From the NCBI GenBank assembly GCA_964016885.1, contig OZ024741.1:412114001-412178000 (forward strand): 64,000 bases of DNA, read 5' to 3'. Below, piece by piece: positions 1-16,699 of this stretch (the stretch's first letter is position 1; every line of letters starts with the position of its first letter). The notes under the pieces were generated by a model. The model searched no databases. It was not told where the DNA came from and was given only the letters and a program-made list of their open reading frames with translations. The translations under genes and the position numbers were made by a program. This DNA is from Eledone cirrhosa. Its lineage: Eukaryota.

Positions 1-3000
1 AAGACACTGTCTATATTGTTTAACCCTTTATTACCATATTTCTAATGTAAGACACTGTCTATGTTTTTTAAGCCTATCATTACCATATTTCTAATGTAAG
101 ACACTGTCTATGTTGTTTAACCCTTTCATTATCATATTTCTAATGTAAGACACTGTCTATGTTGTTTAACCCTTTAATTATCATATTTCTAATGTAAAAC
201 ACTGTCTACATTGTTTAACCCTTTCATTAGCATATTTGTAATGTAAGACACTGTCTATGCTGTTTCACCCTTTCATTACCATATTTCTAATGAAAGACAC
301 TGTCTATGTTGTTTAACCCTTTCATTACCATATTTCTAATGTAAGACACTGTCTATGTTGTTTAACCCTTTCATTACCATATTTCTAATGTAAGACTCTG
401 ACTATGTGTTTAACTCTTTCATTACCATATTTCTAATGTAAGACACTGTCTATGTTGTTTAACCCTTTCATTACCATATTTTTAATGTAAGACACTGTCT
501 ATGTTGTTTAACCCTTTCACTACCATGTTTCTAATGTAAGACACTGTCTATATTGTTTAACCCTTTATTACCATATTTCTAATGTAAGACACTGTCTATG
601 TTTATTAACCCTTTCATTACCATATTTCTAATGAAAGACACTGTCTATGTTGTTTAACACTTTTATTACCATATTTCTAATGTCTTTGTTCATTACCATA
701 TTTCTAATGTCTATGTTGTTTAACCCTTTCATTACGATATTTCTAATGTAAGACACTCTCTATGTTGTTTAACCCTTTCATTACCATATTTCTAATGAAA
801 GACTCTGTCTATGTTGTTTAACCTTTTCATTACCATATTTCTAATGTAAGACACTATCTACATTGTCTAACCCTTTCATTACCAAATTTCTAATGTAAGA
901 CACAGTCTATGTTTTTTAACCCTTTCATTACCATATTTCTAATGAAAGACACAGTCTATGTTTTTTAACCCTTTCATTACCAAATTTCTAATGTAAGACA
1001 CTGTCTATGTTGTTTAACCCTTTAATTACCATATTTGTAATGTAAGACACTGTCTATGTTGTTTAACCCTTTCATTAGCATATTTGTAATGTAAGACACT
1101 GTCTATGTTGTTTAACCCTTTCATTACCATATTTCTAATGAAAGACACTGTTTATGTCTTTAACCCTTTCATTACCATATTTCTAATGTAAGACTCTGAC
1201 TATGTGTTTAACTCTTTCATTACCATATTTCTAATGTAAGACACTGTCTATGTTGTTTAACCCTTTCATTACCATATTTTTAATGTAAGTCACTGTCTAT
1301 GTTGTTTAACCCTTTCATTACCATATTTCTAATGTAAGACACTGTCTATGTTGTTTAAACTTTTCACTACCATGTTTCTAATGTAAGACACTCTCTATAT
1401 TGTTTAACCCTTTATTACCATATTTCTAATGAAAGACTCTGTCTATGTTGTTTAACCTTTTCATTACCATATTTCTAATGTAAGACACTGTGTATGTTGT
1501 TTAACCCTTTAATTACCATATTTCTAACGTAAGACATTGTCTATATTGTTTAACCCTTTCACTACCATGTTTCTAATGTAAGACACTGTCTATATTGTTT
1601 AACCCTTTATTACCATATTTCTAATGTAAGACACTGTCTATGTTTTTTAACCCTTTCATTACCATATTTCTAATGAAAGACACTGTCTATGTCCTTTAAC
1701 CCTTTCATTACCATATTTCTAATGAAAGACACTGTCTATGTTGTTTAACACTTTCATTACCATATTTCTAATGAAAGACACTGTCTATGTTGTTTAACCC
1801 TTTCATTACCATATTTCTAATGTCTATGTTCATTACCATATTTCTAATGTCTATGTTGTTTAACCCTTTCATTACGATATTTCTAATGTAAGACACTCTC
1901 TATGTTGTTTAACCCTTTCATTACCATATTTCTAATGAAAGACTCTGTCTATGTTGTTTAACCTTTTCATTACCATATTTCTAATGTAAGACACTGTCTA
2001 TGTTGTTTAACCCTTTCATTACCATATTTCTAATGAAAGACACTGTTTATGTCTTTAACCCTTTCATTACCATATTTCTAATGTAAGACTCTGACTATGT
2101 GTTTAACCCTTTCATTACCATATTTCTAATGTAAGACACTGTCTATGTTGTTTAACCCTTTCATTACCATATTTTTAATGTAAGACACTGTCTATGTTGT
2201 TTAACCCTTTCACTACCATGTTTCTAATGTAAGACACTGTCTATATTGTTTAACCCTTTATTACCATATTTCTAATGTAAGACACTGTCTATGTTTTTTA
2301 ACCCTTTCATTACCATATTTCTAATGAAAGACACTGTCTGTGTCCTTTAACCCTTTCATTACCATATTTCTAATGAAAGACACTGTCTATGTTGTTTAAC
2401 ACTTTCATTACCATATTTCTAATGTAAGACACTCTCTATGTTGTTTAACCCTTTAATTACCATATTTGTAATGTAAGACACTGTCTATGTTGTTTAACCC
2501 TTTCATTACCATATTTGTAATGTAAGACACTGTGTATCTTGTTTAACCTTTCATTACCATATTTCTAACGTAAGACACTGTCTATGTTGTTTAACCCTTT
2601 CATTACCATATTTCTAATGAAAGACTCTGTCTATGTTGTTTACCCTTTTCATTACCATATTTCTGATGTAAGACACTGTCTATGTTGCTTAACCTTTTCT
2701 TTACCATATTTCTAATTAAAGACACTGTATATGTCGTGTAACCATTTCATTACCATATTTCTAATGTAAGACACTGTCTATGTTGTTTAACCCTTTCATT
2801 ACCATATTTCTAATGTAAGAGACTGTCTATGTTGTTTATCCCTTTAATTACCATATTTCTAATGTAAGACACTGTTTATGTTGTTTAACCTTTTCATTAC
2901 CATATTTCTAATGTAAGACACGATCTATGTTGTTTAACCCTTTCATTACCATATTTCTAATGAAAGACACTGTCTATGTTGTTTAACCCTTTCATTACCA

Positions 3001-7040: not shown

Positions 7041-8227
7041 GGTGGGCTCTTAGAAAACTAGGAGTAGATGAATGGCTTGTGAAAGCGGTACAAGCCATGT
7101 ATAGGGGAGCAGTCAGCAAAGTTAGGATTGGCAATGAGTATAGCGAGCAATTTAGCGTACAGGTTGGGGTCCACCAGGGCTCTGTTCTTAGCCCTCTCCT
7201 GTTCATCATAGTCCTGCAGGCAATAACGGAGGAGTTTAAGACCGGATGCCCATGGGAACTCCTGTATGCTGATGACCTCGCACTCATAGCTGAATCTATG
7301 GTAGAACTAGAGAATAAATTCCAAACCTGGAAGCAGGGACTAGAGAGAAAGGGCCTCAAAGTCAACATGACAAAGACTAAGGTCCTTATAAGTAGACGAG
7401 AAAACAGAACCCAGATCCCCTCAGGGAAATGGCCTTGCTCAGTATGTAGGAAAGGTGTAGGTAGGAACTCCATTCTCTGCCCCAAATGCAACCAATGGGT
7501 ACACAAGAGATGTAGCGGGATCTCAGGAAGCTTAATTAAGAATGTAGGATTCACATGCAGCAGCTGTGCTGAAACAGCAAGCAAACAGCCACAGGAAACA
7601 AGTACCACCAATCTCTGGGAGGGCCCTGTAGAAACAGTAGACAGCTTCTGCTACCTAGGTGACCGAATTAGCAACGGAGGTGGGTGCTCAGAAAGTACAA
7701 TAACTAGGGTAAGAACGGGATGGAAGAAGTTTAGGGAACTACTACCACTGCTAGCTGCAAAAGGCTTCTCCCTCAGAATGAAAGGCAGACTGTATGATGC
7801 GTGTATCCGAACAGCGATGTTGCATGGTAGTGAGACCTGGGCGCTGAAGGTGGAAGACTTACGTAGATTAGAGAGAAACGAAGCCTGCATGCTCCGATGG
7901 ATGTGTAACAGTAATATACGTGAACGACAAAGCATAAAGGAATTGAGAGAGAGACTGAGCATAAGAGGAATCAAATGCTGCGTACAGGAGAGGCGGTTAC
8001 GCTGGTATGGACATGTGATGCGTATGAAGGATGACAGCTGCATAAAAAGGTGCAGAGCACTAGAAGTTGATGGAAACCGCGGAGTGGGGAGACCCAAGAT
8101 GACTTGGGATGAGGTGATAAAAGCCGACCTTACCCAACTACACCTCTCAAAGTCAATGACACACGACCGTGACTTCTGGCGTCACGCAGTAATACAGGGT
8201 ACCCGACCTCCCATGGGTACATGCTGA
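7040..8227 (+). pseudogene. ORF2 fragment (C-terminal RT, inserted PHD finger, RTE C-terminal region); no endonuclease domain or true start
   Basis: The frame is open from the junction (WWALRKLGVDEWLVKAVQAMY...) to TGA at 8225-8227, 395 codons with no stops. YADD at 7265-7276. The ORF-track start at 7079 is an internal GTG. Confidence 0.93.
7436..7567 (+). other. C4HC3 PHD-type zinc finger within ORF2 (also 10790-10921 and 13021-13152)
   Basis: CSVC-x10-CPKC-x4-H-x2-C-x14-CSSC, with W two residues before the His and F two residues before the last Cys pair, matching the PHD consensus. Confidence 0.85.
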
Positions 8228-8508
8228 AGCATATAAACAATATGCCCCCCCCCCCCACCGCAAGGTGGTCGTGGAGGTGCCACGGCAAAAAAGCACCCAG
8301 CCCACACTGTAACGTGGACGTGTAGGCGCCACGAAAAAGCACCCAGCACTCACTGTAAATGAGGTTGGTGTTAGGAAGGGCATCCAGCTGTAGAAATCAA
8401 GCCAGATCAGTTCCTGTATGAGCAAGGCATGGTCAGCCGACCAGACACTGCCCACAACAGGACAACCCGTCTAACCCATGCTAGCGTGGAAGAACGGACG
8501 TAAAACGG
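8228..8508 (+). other. Structured LINE 3' UTR (C12 tract, internal ~46-49-nt direct repeat, several stem-loops, 3'-terminal stem-loop)
   Basis: Repeat units GGTGCCACGGCAAAAAAGCACCCAGC (8276) and GGCGCCACGAAAAAGCACCCAGC (8325). Hairpin CCACC-GCAA-GGTGG at 8255-8268. Terminal stems CGTCT/GGACG (8468-8472/8496-8500) and CCATG/CGTGG (8476-8480/8485-8489). Confidence 0.8.
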
Positions 8509-8530
8509 TGATGATGATGATGATGATGAT
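8509..8530 (+). repeat. (TGA)7 microsatellite 3' tail of the LINE (also 11864-11885 and 14094-14115)
   Basis: TGATGATGATGATGATGATGAT directly before the satellite resumes. Short tandem-repeat tails in place of poly(A) are typical of RTE/CR1/L2 elements. Confidence 0.95.
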
Positions 8531-10394: not shown

Positions 10395-11581
10395 GGTGGG
10401 CTCTTAGAAAACTAGGAGTAGATGAATGGCTTGTGAAAGCGGTACAAGCCATGTATAGGGGAGCAGTCAGCAAAGTTAGGATTGGCAATGAGTATAGCGA
10501 GCAATTTAGCGTACAGGTTGGGGTCCACCAGGGCTCTGTTCTTAGCCCTCTCCTGTTCATCATAGTCCTGCAGGCAATAACGGAGGAGTTTAAGACCGGA
10601 TGCCCATGGGAACTCCTGTATGCTGATGACCTCGCACTCATAGCTGAATCTATGGTAGAACTAGAGAATAAATTCCAAACCTGGAAGCAGGGACTAGAGA
10701 GAAAGGGCCTCAAAGTCAACATGACAAAGACTAAGGTCCTTATAAGTAGACGAGAAAACAGAACCCAGATCCCCTCAGGGAAATGGCCTTGCTCAGTATG
10801 TAGGAAAGGTGTAGGTAGGAACTCCATTCTCTGCCCCAAATGCAACCAATGGGTACACAAGAGATGTAGCGGGATCTCAGGAAGCTTAATTAAGAATGTA
10901 GGATTCACATGCAGCAGCTGTGCTGAAACAGCAAGCAAACAGCCACAGGAAACAAGTACCACCAATCTCTGGGAGGGCCCTGTAGAAACAGTAGACAGCT
11001 TCTGCTACCTAGGTGACCGAATTAGCAACGGAGGTGGGTGCTCAGAAAGTACAATAACTAGGGTAAGAACGGGATGGAAGAAGTTTAGGGAACTACTACC
11101 ACTGCTAGCTGCAAAAGGCTTCTCCCTCAGAATGAAAGGCAGACTGTATGATGCGTGTATCCGAACAGCGATGTTGCATGGTAGTGAGACCTGGGCGCTG
11201 AAGGTGGAAGACTTACGTAGATTAGAGAGAAACGAAGCCTGCATGCTCCGATGGATGTGTAACAGTAATATACGTGAACGACAAAGCATAAAGGAATTGA
11301 GAGAGAGACTGAGCATAAGAGGAATCAAATGCTGCGTACAGGAGAGGCGGTTACGCTGGTATGGACATGTGATGCGTATGAAGGATGACAGCTGCATAAA
11401 AAGGTGCAGAGCACTAGAAGTTGATGGAAACCGCGGAGTGGGGAGACCCAAGATGACTTGGGATGAGGTGATAAAAGCCGACCTTACCCAACTACACCTC
11501 TCAAAGTCAATGACACACGACCGTGACTTCTGGCGTCACGCAGTAATACAGGGTACCCGACCTCCCATGGGTACATGCTGA
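10394..11581 (+). pseudogene. ORF2 fragment (RT + PHD), copy 2
   Basis: Translation identical to copy 1 in the ORF track. Confidence 0.93.
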
Positions 11582-11885
11582 AGCATATAAACAATATGCC
11601 CCCCCCCCCCCACCGCAAGGTGGTCGTGGAGGTGCCACGGCAAAAAAGCACCCAGCCCACACTGTAAAGTGGACGTGTAGGCGCCACGAAAAAGCACCCA
11701 GCACTCACTGTAAATGAGGTTGGTGTTAGGAAGGGCATCCAGCTGTAGAAATCAAGCCAGATCAGTTCCTGTATGAGCAAGGCATGGTCAGCCGACCAGA
11801 CACTGCCCACAACAGGACAACCCGTCTAACCCATGCTAGCGTGGAAGAACGGACGTAAAACAGTGATGATGATGATGATGATGAT
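10395..11885 (+). mobile_element. 5'-truncated RTE LINE, copy 2
   Basis: Same junctions as copy 1 at offset +3354. Differences seen: C13 instead of C12, A at 11862 (G in the other copies), and GTAAAGT where copy 1 has GTAACGT. Confidence 0.95.
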
Positions 11886-12625: not shown

Positions 12626-13812
12626 GGTGGGCTCTTAGAAAACTAGGAGTAGATGAATGGCTTGTGAAAGCGGTACAAGCCATGTATAGGGGAGCAGTCA
12701 GCAAAGTTAGGATTGGCAATGAGTATAGCGAGCAATTTAGCGTACAGGTTGGGGTCCACCAGGGCTCTGTTCTTAGCCCTCTCCTGTTCATCATAGTCCT
12801 GCAGGCAATAACGGAGGAGTTTAAGACCGGATGCCCATGGGAACTCCTGTATGCTGATGACCTCGCACTCATAGCTGAATCTATGGTAGAACTAGAGAAT
12901 AAATTCCAAACCTGGAAGCAGGGACTAGAGAGAAAGGGCCTCAAAGTCAACATGACAAAGACTAAGGTCCTTATAAGTAGACGAGAAAACAGAACCCAGA
13001 TCCCCTCAGGGAAATGGCCTTGCTCAGTATGTAGGAAAGGTGTAGGTAGGAACTCCATTCTCTGCCCCAAATGCAACCAATGGGTACACAAGAGATGTAG
13101 CGGGATCTCAGGAAGCTTAATTAAGAATGTAGGATTCACATGCAGCAGCTGTGCTGAAACAGCAAGCAAACAGCCACAGGAAACAAGTACCACCAATCTC
13201 TGGGAGGGCCCTGTAGAAACAGTAGACAGCTTCTGCTACCTAGGTGACCGAATTAGCAACGGAGGTGGGTGCTCAGAAAGTACAATAACTAGGGTAAGAA
13301 CGGGATGGAAGAAGTTTAGGGAACTACTACCACTGCTAGCTGCAAAAGGCTTCTCCCTCAGAATGAAAGGCAGACTGTATGATGCGTGTATCCGAACAGC
13401 GATGTTGCATGGTAGTGAGACCTGGACGCTGAAGGTGGAAGACTTACGTAGATTAGAGAGAAACGAAGCCTGCATGCTCCGATGGATGTGTAACAGTAAT
13501 ATACGTGAACGACAAAGCATAAAGGAATTGAGAGAGAGACTGAGCATAAGAGGAATCAAATGCTGCGTACAGGAGAGGCGGTTACGCTGGTATGGACATG
13601 TGATGCGTATGAAGGATGACAGCTGCATAAAAAGGTGCAGAGCACTAGAAGTTGATGGAAACCGCGGAGTGGGGAGACCCAAGATGACTTGGGATGAGGT
13701 GATAAAAGCCGACCTTACCCAACTACACCTCTCAAAGTCAATGACACACGACCGTGACTTCTGGCGTCACGCAGTAATACAGGGTACCCGACCTCCCATG
13801 GGTACATGCTGA
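12625..13812 (+). pseudogene. ORF2 fragment (RT + PHD), copy 3
   Basis: One amino-acid difference from copies 1 and 2 in the ORF track. Confidence 0.93.
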
Positions 13813-14115
13813 AGCATATAAACAATATGCCCCCCCCCCCCACCGCAAGGTGGTCGTGGAGGTGCCACGGCAAAAAAGCACCCAGCCCACACTGTAAAGT
13901 GGACGTGTAGGCGCCACGAAAAAGCACCCAGCACTCACTGTAAATGAGGTTGGTGTTAGGAAGGGCATCCAGCTGTAGAAATCAAGCCAGATCAGTTCCT
14001 GTATGAGCAAGGCATGGTCAGCCGACCAGACACTGCCCACAACAGGACAACCCGTCTAACCCATGCTAGCGTGGAAGAACGGACGTAAAACGGTGATGAT
14101 GATGATGATGATGAT
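12626..14115 (+). mobile_element. 5'-truncated RTE LINE, copy 3
   Basis: Same junctions at offset +5585 from copy 1; private G>A at 13426 (Ala>Thr, SETWA>SETWT). Confidence 0.95.
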
Positions 14116-16699
14116 TTCTAATATAAGATACTGTCTATGTTGTTTAACCCTTTCATTACCATATTTCTAAATGAAAGACACTGACTATGTTGGTTAACCC
14201 TTTCATTACCATATTTCTAATGAAAGACACTGTCTATGTTGTTAAACTTTTTCATTACCATATTTCTAATGAAAGACACTGTCTCTATTGTTTAACCCTT
14301 TCATTACCATATTTCTAATGTAAGACACTGTCTATGTTGTTTAACCTTTTCATTACCATATTTCTAATGAAAAACACTGTCTATGTTATTTAAACCTTTC
14401 ATTACCATATTTCTAATGGAAGACACTGTCTATGTTGTTTAACCCTTTCATTACCATATTTCTAATGAAAGACACTGTCTATGTTGTTTAACCCTTTCAT
14501 TACCATATTTCTAATGTAAGACACTGTCTATGTTGTTTAACTCTTTCATTACCATATTTCTAACGTAAGACACTGTCTATGTTGTTTAACCCTTTCATTT
14601 CCATATTTCTAATGTAAGACACTGAATATGTTGTTTAACCCTTTCATTACCATATTTCTAATGAAAGACACTCTGTATGTTGTTGAACCCTTTAATTACC
14701 ATATTTCTAATGTAAGACACTGTCTATGTTGTTTAACCTTTTCATTACCATATTTCTAATGAAAGACACTGACTATGTTGTTTAACCCTTTCATTACCAT
14801 ATTTCTAATGTAAGACACTGTCTATGTTGTTTAACCCTTTCATTACCATATTTCTAATGAAAGACACTGTCTATGTTGTTTAACCCTTTCATTACCATAT
14901 TTCTAATGTAAGACACAGTCTATGTTGTTTAACCCTTTCATTACCATAATTCTAATGAAAGACACTGTCTATGTCTTTAAGCTTGCATTACCATCATTCT
15001 AATGAAAGACATTGTCTATGTCTTTAAACCTTTCATTCCCATATTTCTAATGTAAGACACTGTCTATGTTGTTTAACCCTTTTAATAGCATACTTCTAAT
15101 GTAAAACACTGTCTATGTTGTTTAACCCTTTCATTACCATATTTCTAATGAAAGACACTGTCTATGTTGTTTAACACTTTCATTACCATATTTCTAATGT
15201 AAGACACTGTCTATGTTGTTTAACCCTTTCATTACCATATTTCTAATGAAAGACACTCTGTATGTTGTTTAACCCTTTCATTACCATATTTCTAATGAAA
15301 GACACTCTGTATGTTGTTTAACTTTTTCTTTACCATATTTCTAATGTAAGACACTGTCTATGTTGTTTAACCCATTCATTAACATATTTCCAATGAAAGA
15401 AACTGTCTAACTTGTTTAACCCTTTAATTACCATATTTCTAATGTAAGACACTGTCTATGTTGTTTAACCCTTTCATTACCATATTTCTAATGTAAGACA
15501 CTCTGTATGTTGCTTAACCTTTTCTTTACCATATTTCAAATGAATGACACTGTATGTGTCGTGTAACCATTTCATTACCATATTTCTAATGAAAGACACT
15601 CTGTATGTTGCTTAACCTTTTCTTTACCATATTTCAAATGAATGACACTGTATATGTCGTGTAACCATTTCATTACCATATTTCTAATGTAAGACACTGT
15701 CTATGTTCTTTATCCCTTTAATTACCATATTTCTGATGTAAGACACTGTTTATGTTGTTTAACCTTTTCATTACCATATTTCTAATGTAAGACACGATTT
15801 ATCTTGTTTAACCCTTTCATTACCATATTTCTAAGGAAAGACACTATCTATGTTGTTTAACACTTTCATTACCATATTTCTAATGAAAGACACTGTCTAT
15901 GTTGTTTAACGCTTTCATTACCATATTTCTAATGAAAGACACTATCTATGTTGTTTAACCCTTTCATTAATATATTTCTAATTAAAGACACTGTCTATGT
16001 TGTTTAACCATTTCATTACCATATTTCTAACGTAAGACACTGTCTATGTTGTTTAACCCTTTCATTACTATATTTCTAATATAAGATACTGTCTATGTTG
16101 TTTAACCCTTTCATTACCATATTTCTAATGAAAGACACTGACTATGTTGTTTAACCCTTTCATTACCATATTTCTAATGTAAGACACTGTCTCAATTGTT
16201 TAACCCTTTCATTACCATATTTCTAACGTAAGACACTGTCTATGTTGTTTAACCCTTTCATTACCATATTTCTAATGTAAGGTACTGTCTATGTTGTTTA
16301 ACCCTTTCATTACCATATTTCTAATGAAAGACACTGTCTATGTTGTTTAACACTTTTATTACCATATTTCTAATGAAAGACACTGTCTATGTTGTTTAAC
16401 ACTTTTATTACCATATTTCTAATGAAAGACACTCTCTATGTTGTTTAACCCTTTCATTACCATATTTCTAATGAAAGACACTGTCTATGTTGTTGAACCC
16501 TTTCATTACTATATTTCTAATGAAAGACACTGTCTATGTTGTTTAACCCTTTAATTACCATATTTCTAATGTAAGACACTGTCTATGTTGTTTAACCATT
16601 TCATTACCATATTTCTAATGAAAGACACTCTGTATGTTGTTAAACCCTTTAATTACCATATTTCTAATGTAAGACACTGTCTATGTTGTTTAACCCTTT

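Follow-up and report, generated by a model that had tools for sequence, protein, structure and literature searches.

Why should the 3' untranslated region (UTR) of a retrotransposon carry a row of small hairpins and predicted pseudoknots? This question is raised by a stretch of the Eledone cirrhosa genome (GCA_964016885.1, contig OZ024741.1, forward-strand positions 412,114,001 to 412,178,000), 64,000 nucleotides that we call the window and number from its first letter. It holds three copies of a young long interspersed nuclear element (LINE) of RTE type, here named family F1, and an initial annotation, made from the letters alone, had described nucleotides 8255-8363 in the 3' UTR of the first copy as alternating GNRA hairpins and H-type pseudoknots in a LINE that lacks poly(A). 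Our comparisons suggest that this stretch is the duplicated front half of a module whose ancestral place is the leader of RTE elements and whose best-conserved part, a core at 8364-8403, follows immediately. Tentatively, and short of calling it probable, we propose that the relocated module docks the RNA on ribosomes, so that the nascent RTE protein would pick this RNA up.

A duplicated unit of hairpin and predicted pseudoknot

All pairings named for 8255-8363 were found in the sequence, two individual pairs being imperfect (this and all other features of the LINE copies described here lie on the plus strand). Hairpin H1 (8255-8268) closes a GCAA loop with five of five pairs (8255-59/8264-68). 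It runs into the predicted H-type pseudoknot of unit 1 (8268-8297), in which all four pairs of stem S1 (8270-73/8281-84) and all five of S2 (8276-80/8293-97) can form, S1 being longer than first noted, with six pairs at 8268-73/8281-86. Hairpin H2 (8305-8316, GTAA loop) keeps three of four pairs, with T8308 opposite C8313; the predicted pseudoknot of unit 2 (8319-8343) keeps four of four S1 pairs and four of five S2 pairs; and H3 (8349-8363) has four pairs, plus a T-A pair that requires a bulged C8353. On the sequence, interleaved stems, a short loop 1 and an A-rich loop 3 agree with H-type geometry. As had been noted, the closing pair of H2 is broken by C8313 in copy 1 only: copies 2 and 3, which hold the same module at 11610-11718 and 13840-13948, carry A at this position. 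A is also the family norm, present in 29/29 scored young F1 copies and in 2,523,264 of 2,551,488 of the contig depth in run X1 (contigs of four runs did no more than confirm variants). An initial search had made C8313 appear to be the norm (22/23 loci), a result that we rejected as query-driven search bias, since young copies and run contigs show A.

The block is a tandem duplication of a single 49-nt hairpin-plus-pseudoknot unit, with 38 of 49 columns identical, and its two knots and three hairpins are therefore not independent. This takes the ground from the earlier view of a 3' UTR purpose-built from alternating modules, like that of tobacco mosaic virus (TMV): the alternation is duplication, the knot of unit 2 is mismatched here and degraded in family F2, the ancestral place of the module appears to be the 5' UTR, and its best-conserved part lies outside 8255-8363. 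In older families, the unit (48-49 nt) has grown into long tandem arrays (L276, L297, L307 and L311).

How easily would such a unit arise by chance? We made 5000 dinucleotide shuffles each of 8255-8303 and 8255-8363. A 4+5-pair knot arose 15 times and a 4-bp GNRA hairpin 38 times in the shorter stretch, the knot 70 times and the hairpin 95 times in the longer, and both together in none of the shuffles of either; as a control, the knot was present in 0/24 windows of the open reading frame (ORF). The nested folding energy is ordinary (z -0.33), with ViennaRNA yielding either hairpin, so that the case rests on comparison rather than on stability. Searches against Rfam gave no match for 8255-8363 at E values up to 10 and no ribozyme core; six weak, unrelated matches (E 3.6-7.7) all lay outside 8255-8403, and no self-cleaving ribozyme (twister, hepatitis delta virus (HDV)-like, hammerhead, pistol or hatchet) was among them. 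In 18 related loci, nothing reached the gathering score, and a further scan returned microsatellite noise, except for a tRNA match on the head of a short interspersed nuclear element (SINE).

Targeted genome searches gave families F2-F6 and a SINE. The S2 stem reads GGTGC/GCACC in F1, GGTGT/ACACA in unit 1 of F2, GGAGA/GCTCC in F3, GGTGG/GCACC in F4 and GGTGT/GCACC in F6, while unit 2 of F2, an active family, keeps two S2 pairs only, having lost three of five. In the outside lineages L150 and L206, S1 has A-T where others have T-A. The closing pair of H1 is T-A, T-G or C-G across copies; the first hairpin of F2 has T opposite T, and all families retain the letters TGTAA. In a covariation set of ten hand-picked, related units, from which F5 was left out as too decayed, paired cells made up 84.1%, compared to 77.9 ± 2.0 in shuffles (reached by 1/500), and covariation was 0.222 versus 0.133 (4/500 shuffles), with slid controls at most 0.101. 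Two pairs per stem, in S1 and in S2, change on both sides, with modest significance, and F1, F2, F3, F4 and F6 each keep one unit with at least three S1 and at least four S2 pairs. The compensatory and one-sided changes across families, together with the variable closing pair of H1, bear out the earlier suggestion of selection on structure, and we regard the structural support for the knot across families as moderate. One intact knot per element is probably enough, with extra copies decaying.

The SINE consists of a tRNA head, a CORE-like body, one unit, the core and an F4 tail in 23/32 copies. Since 9/32 copies have a two-unit form and 8 of the 32 an F1-type tail, exchange between SINE and LINE must occur. 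Position 8255 is the first base shared by LINE and SINE, and the loose ends before it in run contigs are SINE sequence. At the other end, 8343-8363 of the window aligns with the 3' end of the CORE-like body (score reached by 1/2000 shuffles); by eye, this body can itself be drawn as knot-CAG-hairpin, like the unit (e.g. L096, 6602-6946, minus strand). In an alternative view, most of the 109 nt of 8255-8363 would be passenger sequence: a leader piece was captured, slippage tends to duplicate it, exchange with SINEs keeps the duplicates similar, and only the downstream core is of importance, possibly as a regulator-bound DNA element. The growth of units into long decaying arrays, the damage to unit 2 in two active families, the exchange itself and the lack of significance in nested folding z-scores would all fit, and regulator binding was speculated upon in a passage of Kojima 2018 (PMC5786205). 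A mere passenger, however, would not be expected to show the two-sided changes that we see in S1, from T-A to A-T (L150, L206) and from T-A to C-G (F2, F3), and in S2, from T-A to A-T (F3), nor to retain one well-paired unit in each of F1, F2, F3, F4 and F6; we consider this explanation quite improbable.

The conserved core and the place of the module

Directly downstream of H3 lies the best-conserved part of the module, the core (8364-8403), with a stem (8364-68/8384-88), an invariant purine-rich loop and a predicted second knot that spans an A-rich linker (8379-81/8401-03). The 25-nt core occurs 42 times in 590 kb (59 arbitrary stretches of a 3.0 Gb genome), the reversed core 0 times. An exact pattern for 8364-8388 matched 83 metagenome stretches, 82 of which clustered into 42 groups. 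TGCY is found at +6 to +19 after the core in 19/42 of these clusters, compared to 6, 2, 3 and 1 in later windows, and the second knot is predicted because TGCY is complementary to the invariant GGCA of the core loop. Between F1 and F2, four-fold sites are 37% identical (211 sites) and saturated; the spacer is 55% identical, knot and hairpin 74%, and the core agrees in 24/25 letters. The module is thus strongly conserved in its 3' position.

In other outside lineages, the slot of the knot is taken by a twister ribozyme or by other hairpins. In L178, a twister lies directly 5' of the core and overlaps it (2499-2577, minus strand, E 2.5e-7); The same arrangement is seen in L361 and L362, all three being RTE leaders from outside Schistosoma with a twister-type ribozyme. 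The letters of the core can also be read in published hagfish RTE leaders, and such shared letters are what ties F1 to named RTEs; the twister-slot letters open the hagfish RTE-2_EBu. A search with a 15-letter motif was uninformative (0 matches, 0 control matches), and viral contigs gave one match, in coding DNA. We did not establish that the knot is related to the Nin domain, with which it shares short letters in the supplement of PMC4758252. Animal-type RTE/SINE pieces were also seen inside prokaryotic genome bins (L338-L341, L343-L348, L351, L355-L358, L361, L362), where they are likely contamination.

Where, then, does the module belong? In F4, unit and core stand ahead of the ORF in 12/12 loci, with a short tail in 9/12; the two also occur in the 5' UTR of the outside element L150, which carries the same knot, in SINEs and in short two-part elements. 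In F1 and F2, the module lies behind the ORF, and the core is absent from the 5' UTR of 8/8 full-length F1 and 8/8 F2 loci. Two core matches upstream of F2 copies are neighbouring insertions, and a ribozyme-like stretch close to the start of F2 was set aside, as it falls within the coding frame of the ORF. The 5' UTRs of F1 and F2 are built from tandem monomers of about 330 and 514 bp (L069-L076; L328-L335), with promoter-like boxes discernible by eye (CCAAT-like in both, TATA-like in F2); tandem 5' monomers are likewise found in rodent L1. Among outside loci, we saw no clear case of the core in a 3' UTR.

In a quick tree (42 rows, obtained from 91 copies by reduction at 93% identity; F5, F6 and named RTE references not among the rows), F1-F3 form a 3'-module clade (23 rows, SH-aLRT 99) that is sister to F4 (12 rows, 99), with L150 next; L015m, L017p, L028p and L134p carry the 3' module. 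The tree puts the 3' location in one derived clade, whose 5' UTRs lack the module. By eye, what is left of the earlier tail start can be recognised behind the end of the ORF in F1-F3, and 8255-8530 has a bipartite layout, matching the F4 leader and then the F4 tail, with no ORF between. The simplest history would be that a piece made of leader and tail was joined once to the rear of the ORF, with duplication of the unit afterwards. F1 and F2 are both amplifying now.

It is also conceivable that the knots protect the RNA, as an exonuclease block or as a substitute for poly(A), along the lines of the stability role that the initial annotation had named with viral 3' UTRs in mind, given their compact H-type geometry, the (GAT)n tail of F1 and the fact that the unit occupies the slot of the twister ribozyme in L178, L361 and L362. 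However, the ancestral place lies inside the leader, more than 200 nt away from the point where homology begins in F4, and 32 tail-anchored copies in about 1.04 Mb show no 5'-end pile-up at the knots (a small sample, with DNA copies as an indirect readout). A protective role appears very doubtful.

In most outside elements, the leader position comes with a short spacing to the start codon. In 10 of the 14 outside loci with an endonuclease match downstream of the core, translation from the first ATG that follows the core would run in frame, without a stop, into the endonuclease, and in 12 of the 13 outside elements having the partner triplet, this ATG follows 10-22 nt from it. In the window, an ATG stands 14 nt after the core (8418-8420); it is found at +14/+15 in 52/62 F1 copies and at +10 in 8/8 F2 copies, and it probably represents the original start codon, which travelled with the leader piece. 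Most copies of F4 (L246-L270) have a 7-codon upstream ORF between core and main ATG.

Functional pseudoknots are known from the UTRs of R2 elements (PMC12180492, PMC6765202), and by analogy the module could give the RTE protein itself a second site to bind, needed together with the terminal stem-loop for ribonucleoprotein (RNP) assembly or second-strand synthesis and working from either end. Elements carry one module, 5' or 3', and SINEs and two-part elements retain it, as such a site would lead one to expect; for R2, the published passages report that the protein binds the 3' UTR pseudoknot, that compensatory mutants restore activity, and that a 5' pseudoknot is bound as well. Yet the core barely changes while RTE proteins diverge to 37-48% identity between relatives, unlike the family-specific stem-loop recognition described in passages on L2; the spacing to the start codon would go unexplained; and the knot of 8255-8363 is missing from many outside relatives. 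We regard a second protein-binding site as somewhat unlikely, but as the nearest competitor of ribosome docking.

Proposed ribosome docking and known systems

The short spacing to the start codon in most outside elements, together with the constancy of the core against diverged RTE proteins, points to a host partner, most simply the ribosome. As the module occurs in leaders, in non-coding SINEs (it is retained in the 32 copies examined) and in 3' UTRs, neither a promoter function nor an initiation site would by itself readily account for it. In the ribosome-docking proposal, hairpins and small pseudoknots would fold, along with the downstream core knot, into a docking handle. At the leader position, this handle could support initiation on uncapped RNAs, with twister cleavage upstream of the core removing the cap from the leader RNA, an effect of twister cleavage that published passages describe; at other positions, in 3' UTR or SINE, it would serve docking near the nascent RTE protein. 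SINEs retaining the module could be compared to Alu, which, according to such passages, retains a signal recognition particle domain. The folding, the single relocation and ribosome binding are what we infer. In its widest form, the proposal would describe a 40-nt ribosome-docking knot, animal-wide in one RTE lineage and with exchangeable upstream modules (twister, hairpin or the pseudoknot of 8255-8363), which starts leader translation, was hijacked by SINEs as an Alu-like handle and still works in the 3' UTR of two amplifying LINE families; this extended version we consider unlikely.

Several observations weigh against ribosome docking, or against the structures on which it would depend. The covariation that the initial annotation had named as a check is present and modest, with compensatory and one-sided changes, but four pairs changed on both sides are a count reached by 40/500 shuffles, and the rows were hand-picked and related. 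S2 of unit 2 is broken in the active F2, and the core could have been kept uniform through exchange with the abundant SINEs, with no selection at work. In F1, the second knot is limited to three pairs, and an extension of its outer stem pairs in 28/42 clusters versus 29.5 expected. As the outside loci were found by the exact core pattern, the conservation of the core among them is partly built in. A generic knot descriptor matched 3/42 outside clusters versus 1.65 expected, with 6 in the downstream control, and the knot of 8255-8363 is lineage-limited, with only two outside clusters holding a homologous one. Finally, the one-unit SINE stops before the ATG, and in 15 of the 17 F4 copies that have an ATG 9 nt after the core, this ATG does not share the frame of the ORF.

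Small knots are familiar from other RNAs: the pseudoknot in a hepatitis C virus (HCV)-type internal ribosome entry site (IRES) stands at a fixed distance from the start codon, and the tandem 3' pseudoknots of TMV and the 3' translation enhancers of plant viruses lie in 3' UTRs that lack poly(A). With none of these does the module share a sequence or Rfam match, making the resemblance one of analogy only. Among non-LTR elements, R2 likewise has a pseudoknot in a UTR whose fold, in the published passages, is conserved more than its letters; unlike the R2 knot, which falls within the last ~65 nt and has been shown there to bind protein, the module described here is found 110-250 nt ahead of the tail, ends about 105 nt short of the tail repeats, is accompanied by a separate terminal stem-loop and stems from the leader. 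Ribozyme-headed leaders are reported for RTE (twister variants of Perere-3, PMC8501958) and R2 (HDV-like, via PMC6765202). They share with our module a structured leader RNA tied, in these accounts, to cap-independent translation, and a twister stands 5' of the same core in L178; in contrast to them, 8255-8363 has neither an Rfam match nor a ribozyme core.

Two-part RTE derivatives and RTE-derived SINE bodies have been described before (Kojima 2018, PMC5786205; Kojima 2020, PMC7245038). Here, the two-part piece, in duplicated form, makes up the 3' UTR of LINEs that are autonomous and highly amplified, whereas the published passages on bipartite pieces give no fold. The RTE-derived half termed Ceph domain (PMC5786205) is a different sequence, the core strings having 0 matches in its supplement; by eye, a Ceph-like stretch lies directly upstream of the knot in the L141 cluster. 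Our literature search returned no account of how the module folds or of its relocation to the 3' UTR in autonomous RTEs, though Repbase reports, subscription papers and figure images, which were outside this search, may hold one. A folded handle that is needed wherever it is placed would offer a testable answer to two questions: why two-part parasites arise from RTEs so often, and why pieces of RTE leaders persist in SINE bodies. With natural 5' and 3' versions in a single genome, promoter, initiation and RNP functions can be told apart. Work on gene writing is engineering the UTRs of RTEs (PMC13708176) and could put a minimal cis handle to direct use. Should the knots turn out to be decaying passengers, what is left is a chimeric 3' UTR of an unusual kind.

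The host element and its satellite setting

Copy 1 (7041-8528) is a 5'-truncated F1 element with RVT_1 and PHD matches. It retains the 3' part of a single 1040-codon ORF (7041-8227; reverse transcriptase (RT), PHD finger and C-terminus), whose stop codon at 8225-27 is followed by a 300-nt 3' UTR and a (GAT)n tail (8509-8530), in agreement with the annotated absence of poly(A). The computed terminal stem-loop (8467-8497) is likely the recognition site of the RT; F4 and outside relatives end in the same type of tail. The assignment to RTE follows from a single endonuclease/RT ORF, a short tandem-repeat tail, the terminal stem-loop, 5' truncation and target duplication. Relatives of the F1 ORF carry PF03372 and PF00078 (APE endonuclease and RT), and the 1040-codon frame is present in 8 full-length F1 copies. 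The family is very young: 150/150 scored genomic matches are 100% identical over 155 aa, many of them inside 1040-codon frames. The PHD finger lies within the ORF after the RT core (7436-7567); PF00628 is found in many of the 120 listed relatives, indicating that a PHD-bearing RTE group is widespread.

Otherwise, the window consists of a 49-bp satellite in more than 1100 copies, interrupted by three inserts of 1488-89 bp, its sole non-satellite blocks; copies 2 and 3 lie at 10395-11883 and 12626-14113. All three have both junctions in common, as well as a 6-nt target duplication at both ends, and since both junctions are shared, they represent one insertion that multiplied with the satellite. 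The satellite period has the same length as the module unit (49 nt), and an odd 26-nt stretch lies within the satellite at 15538-15563.
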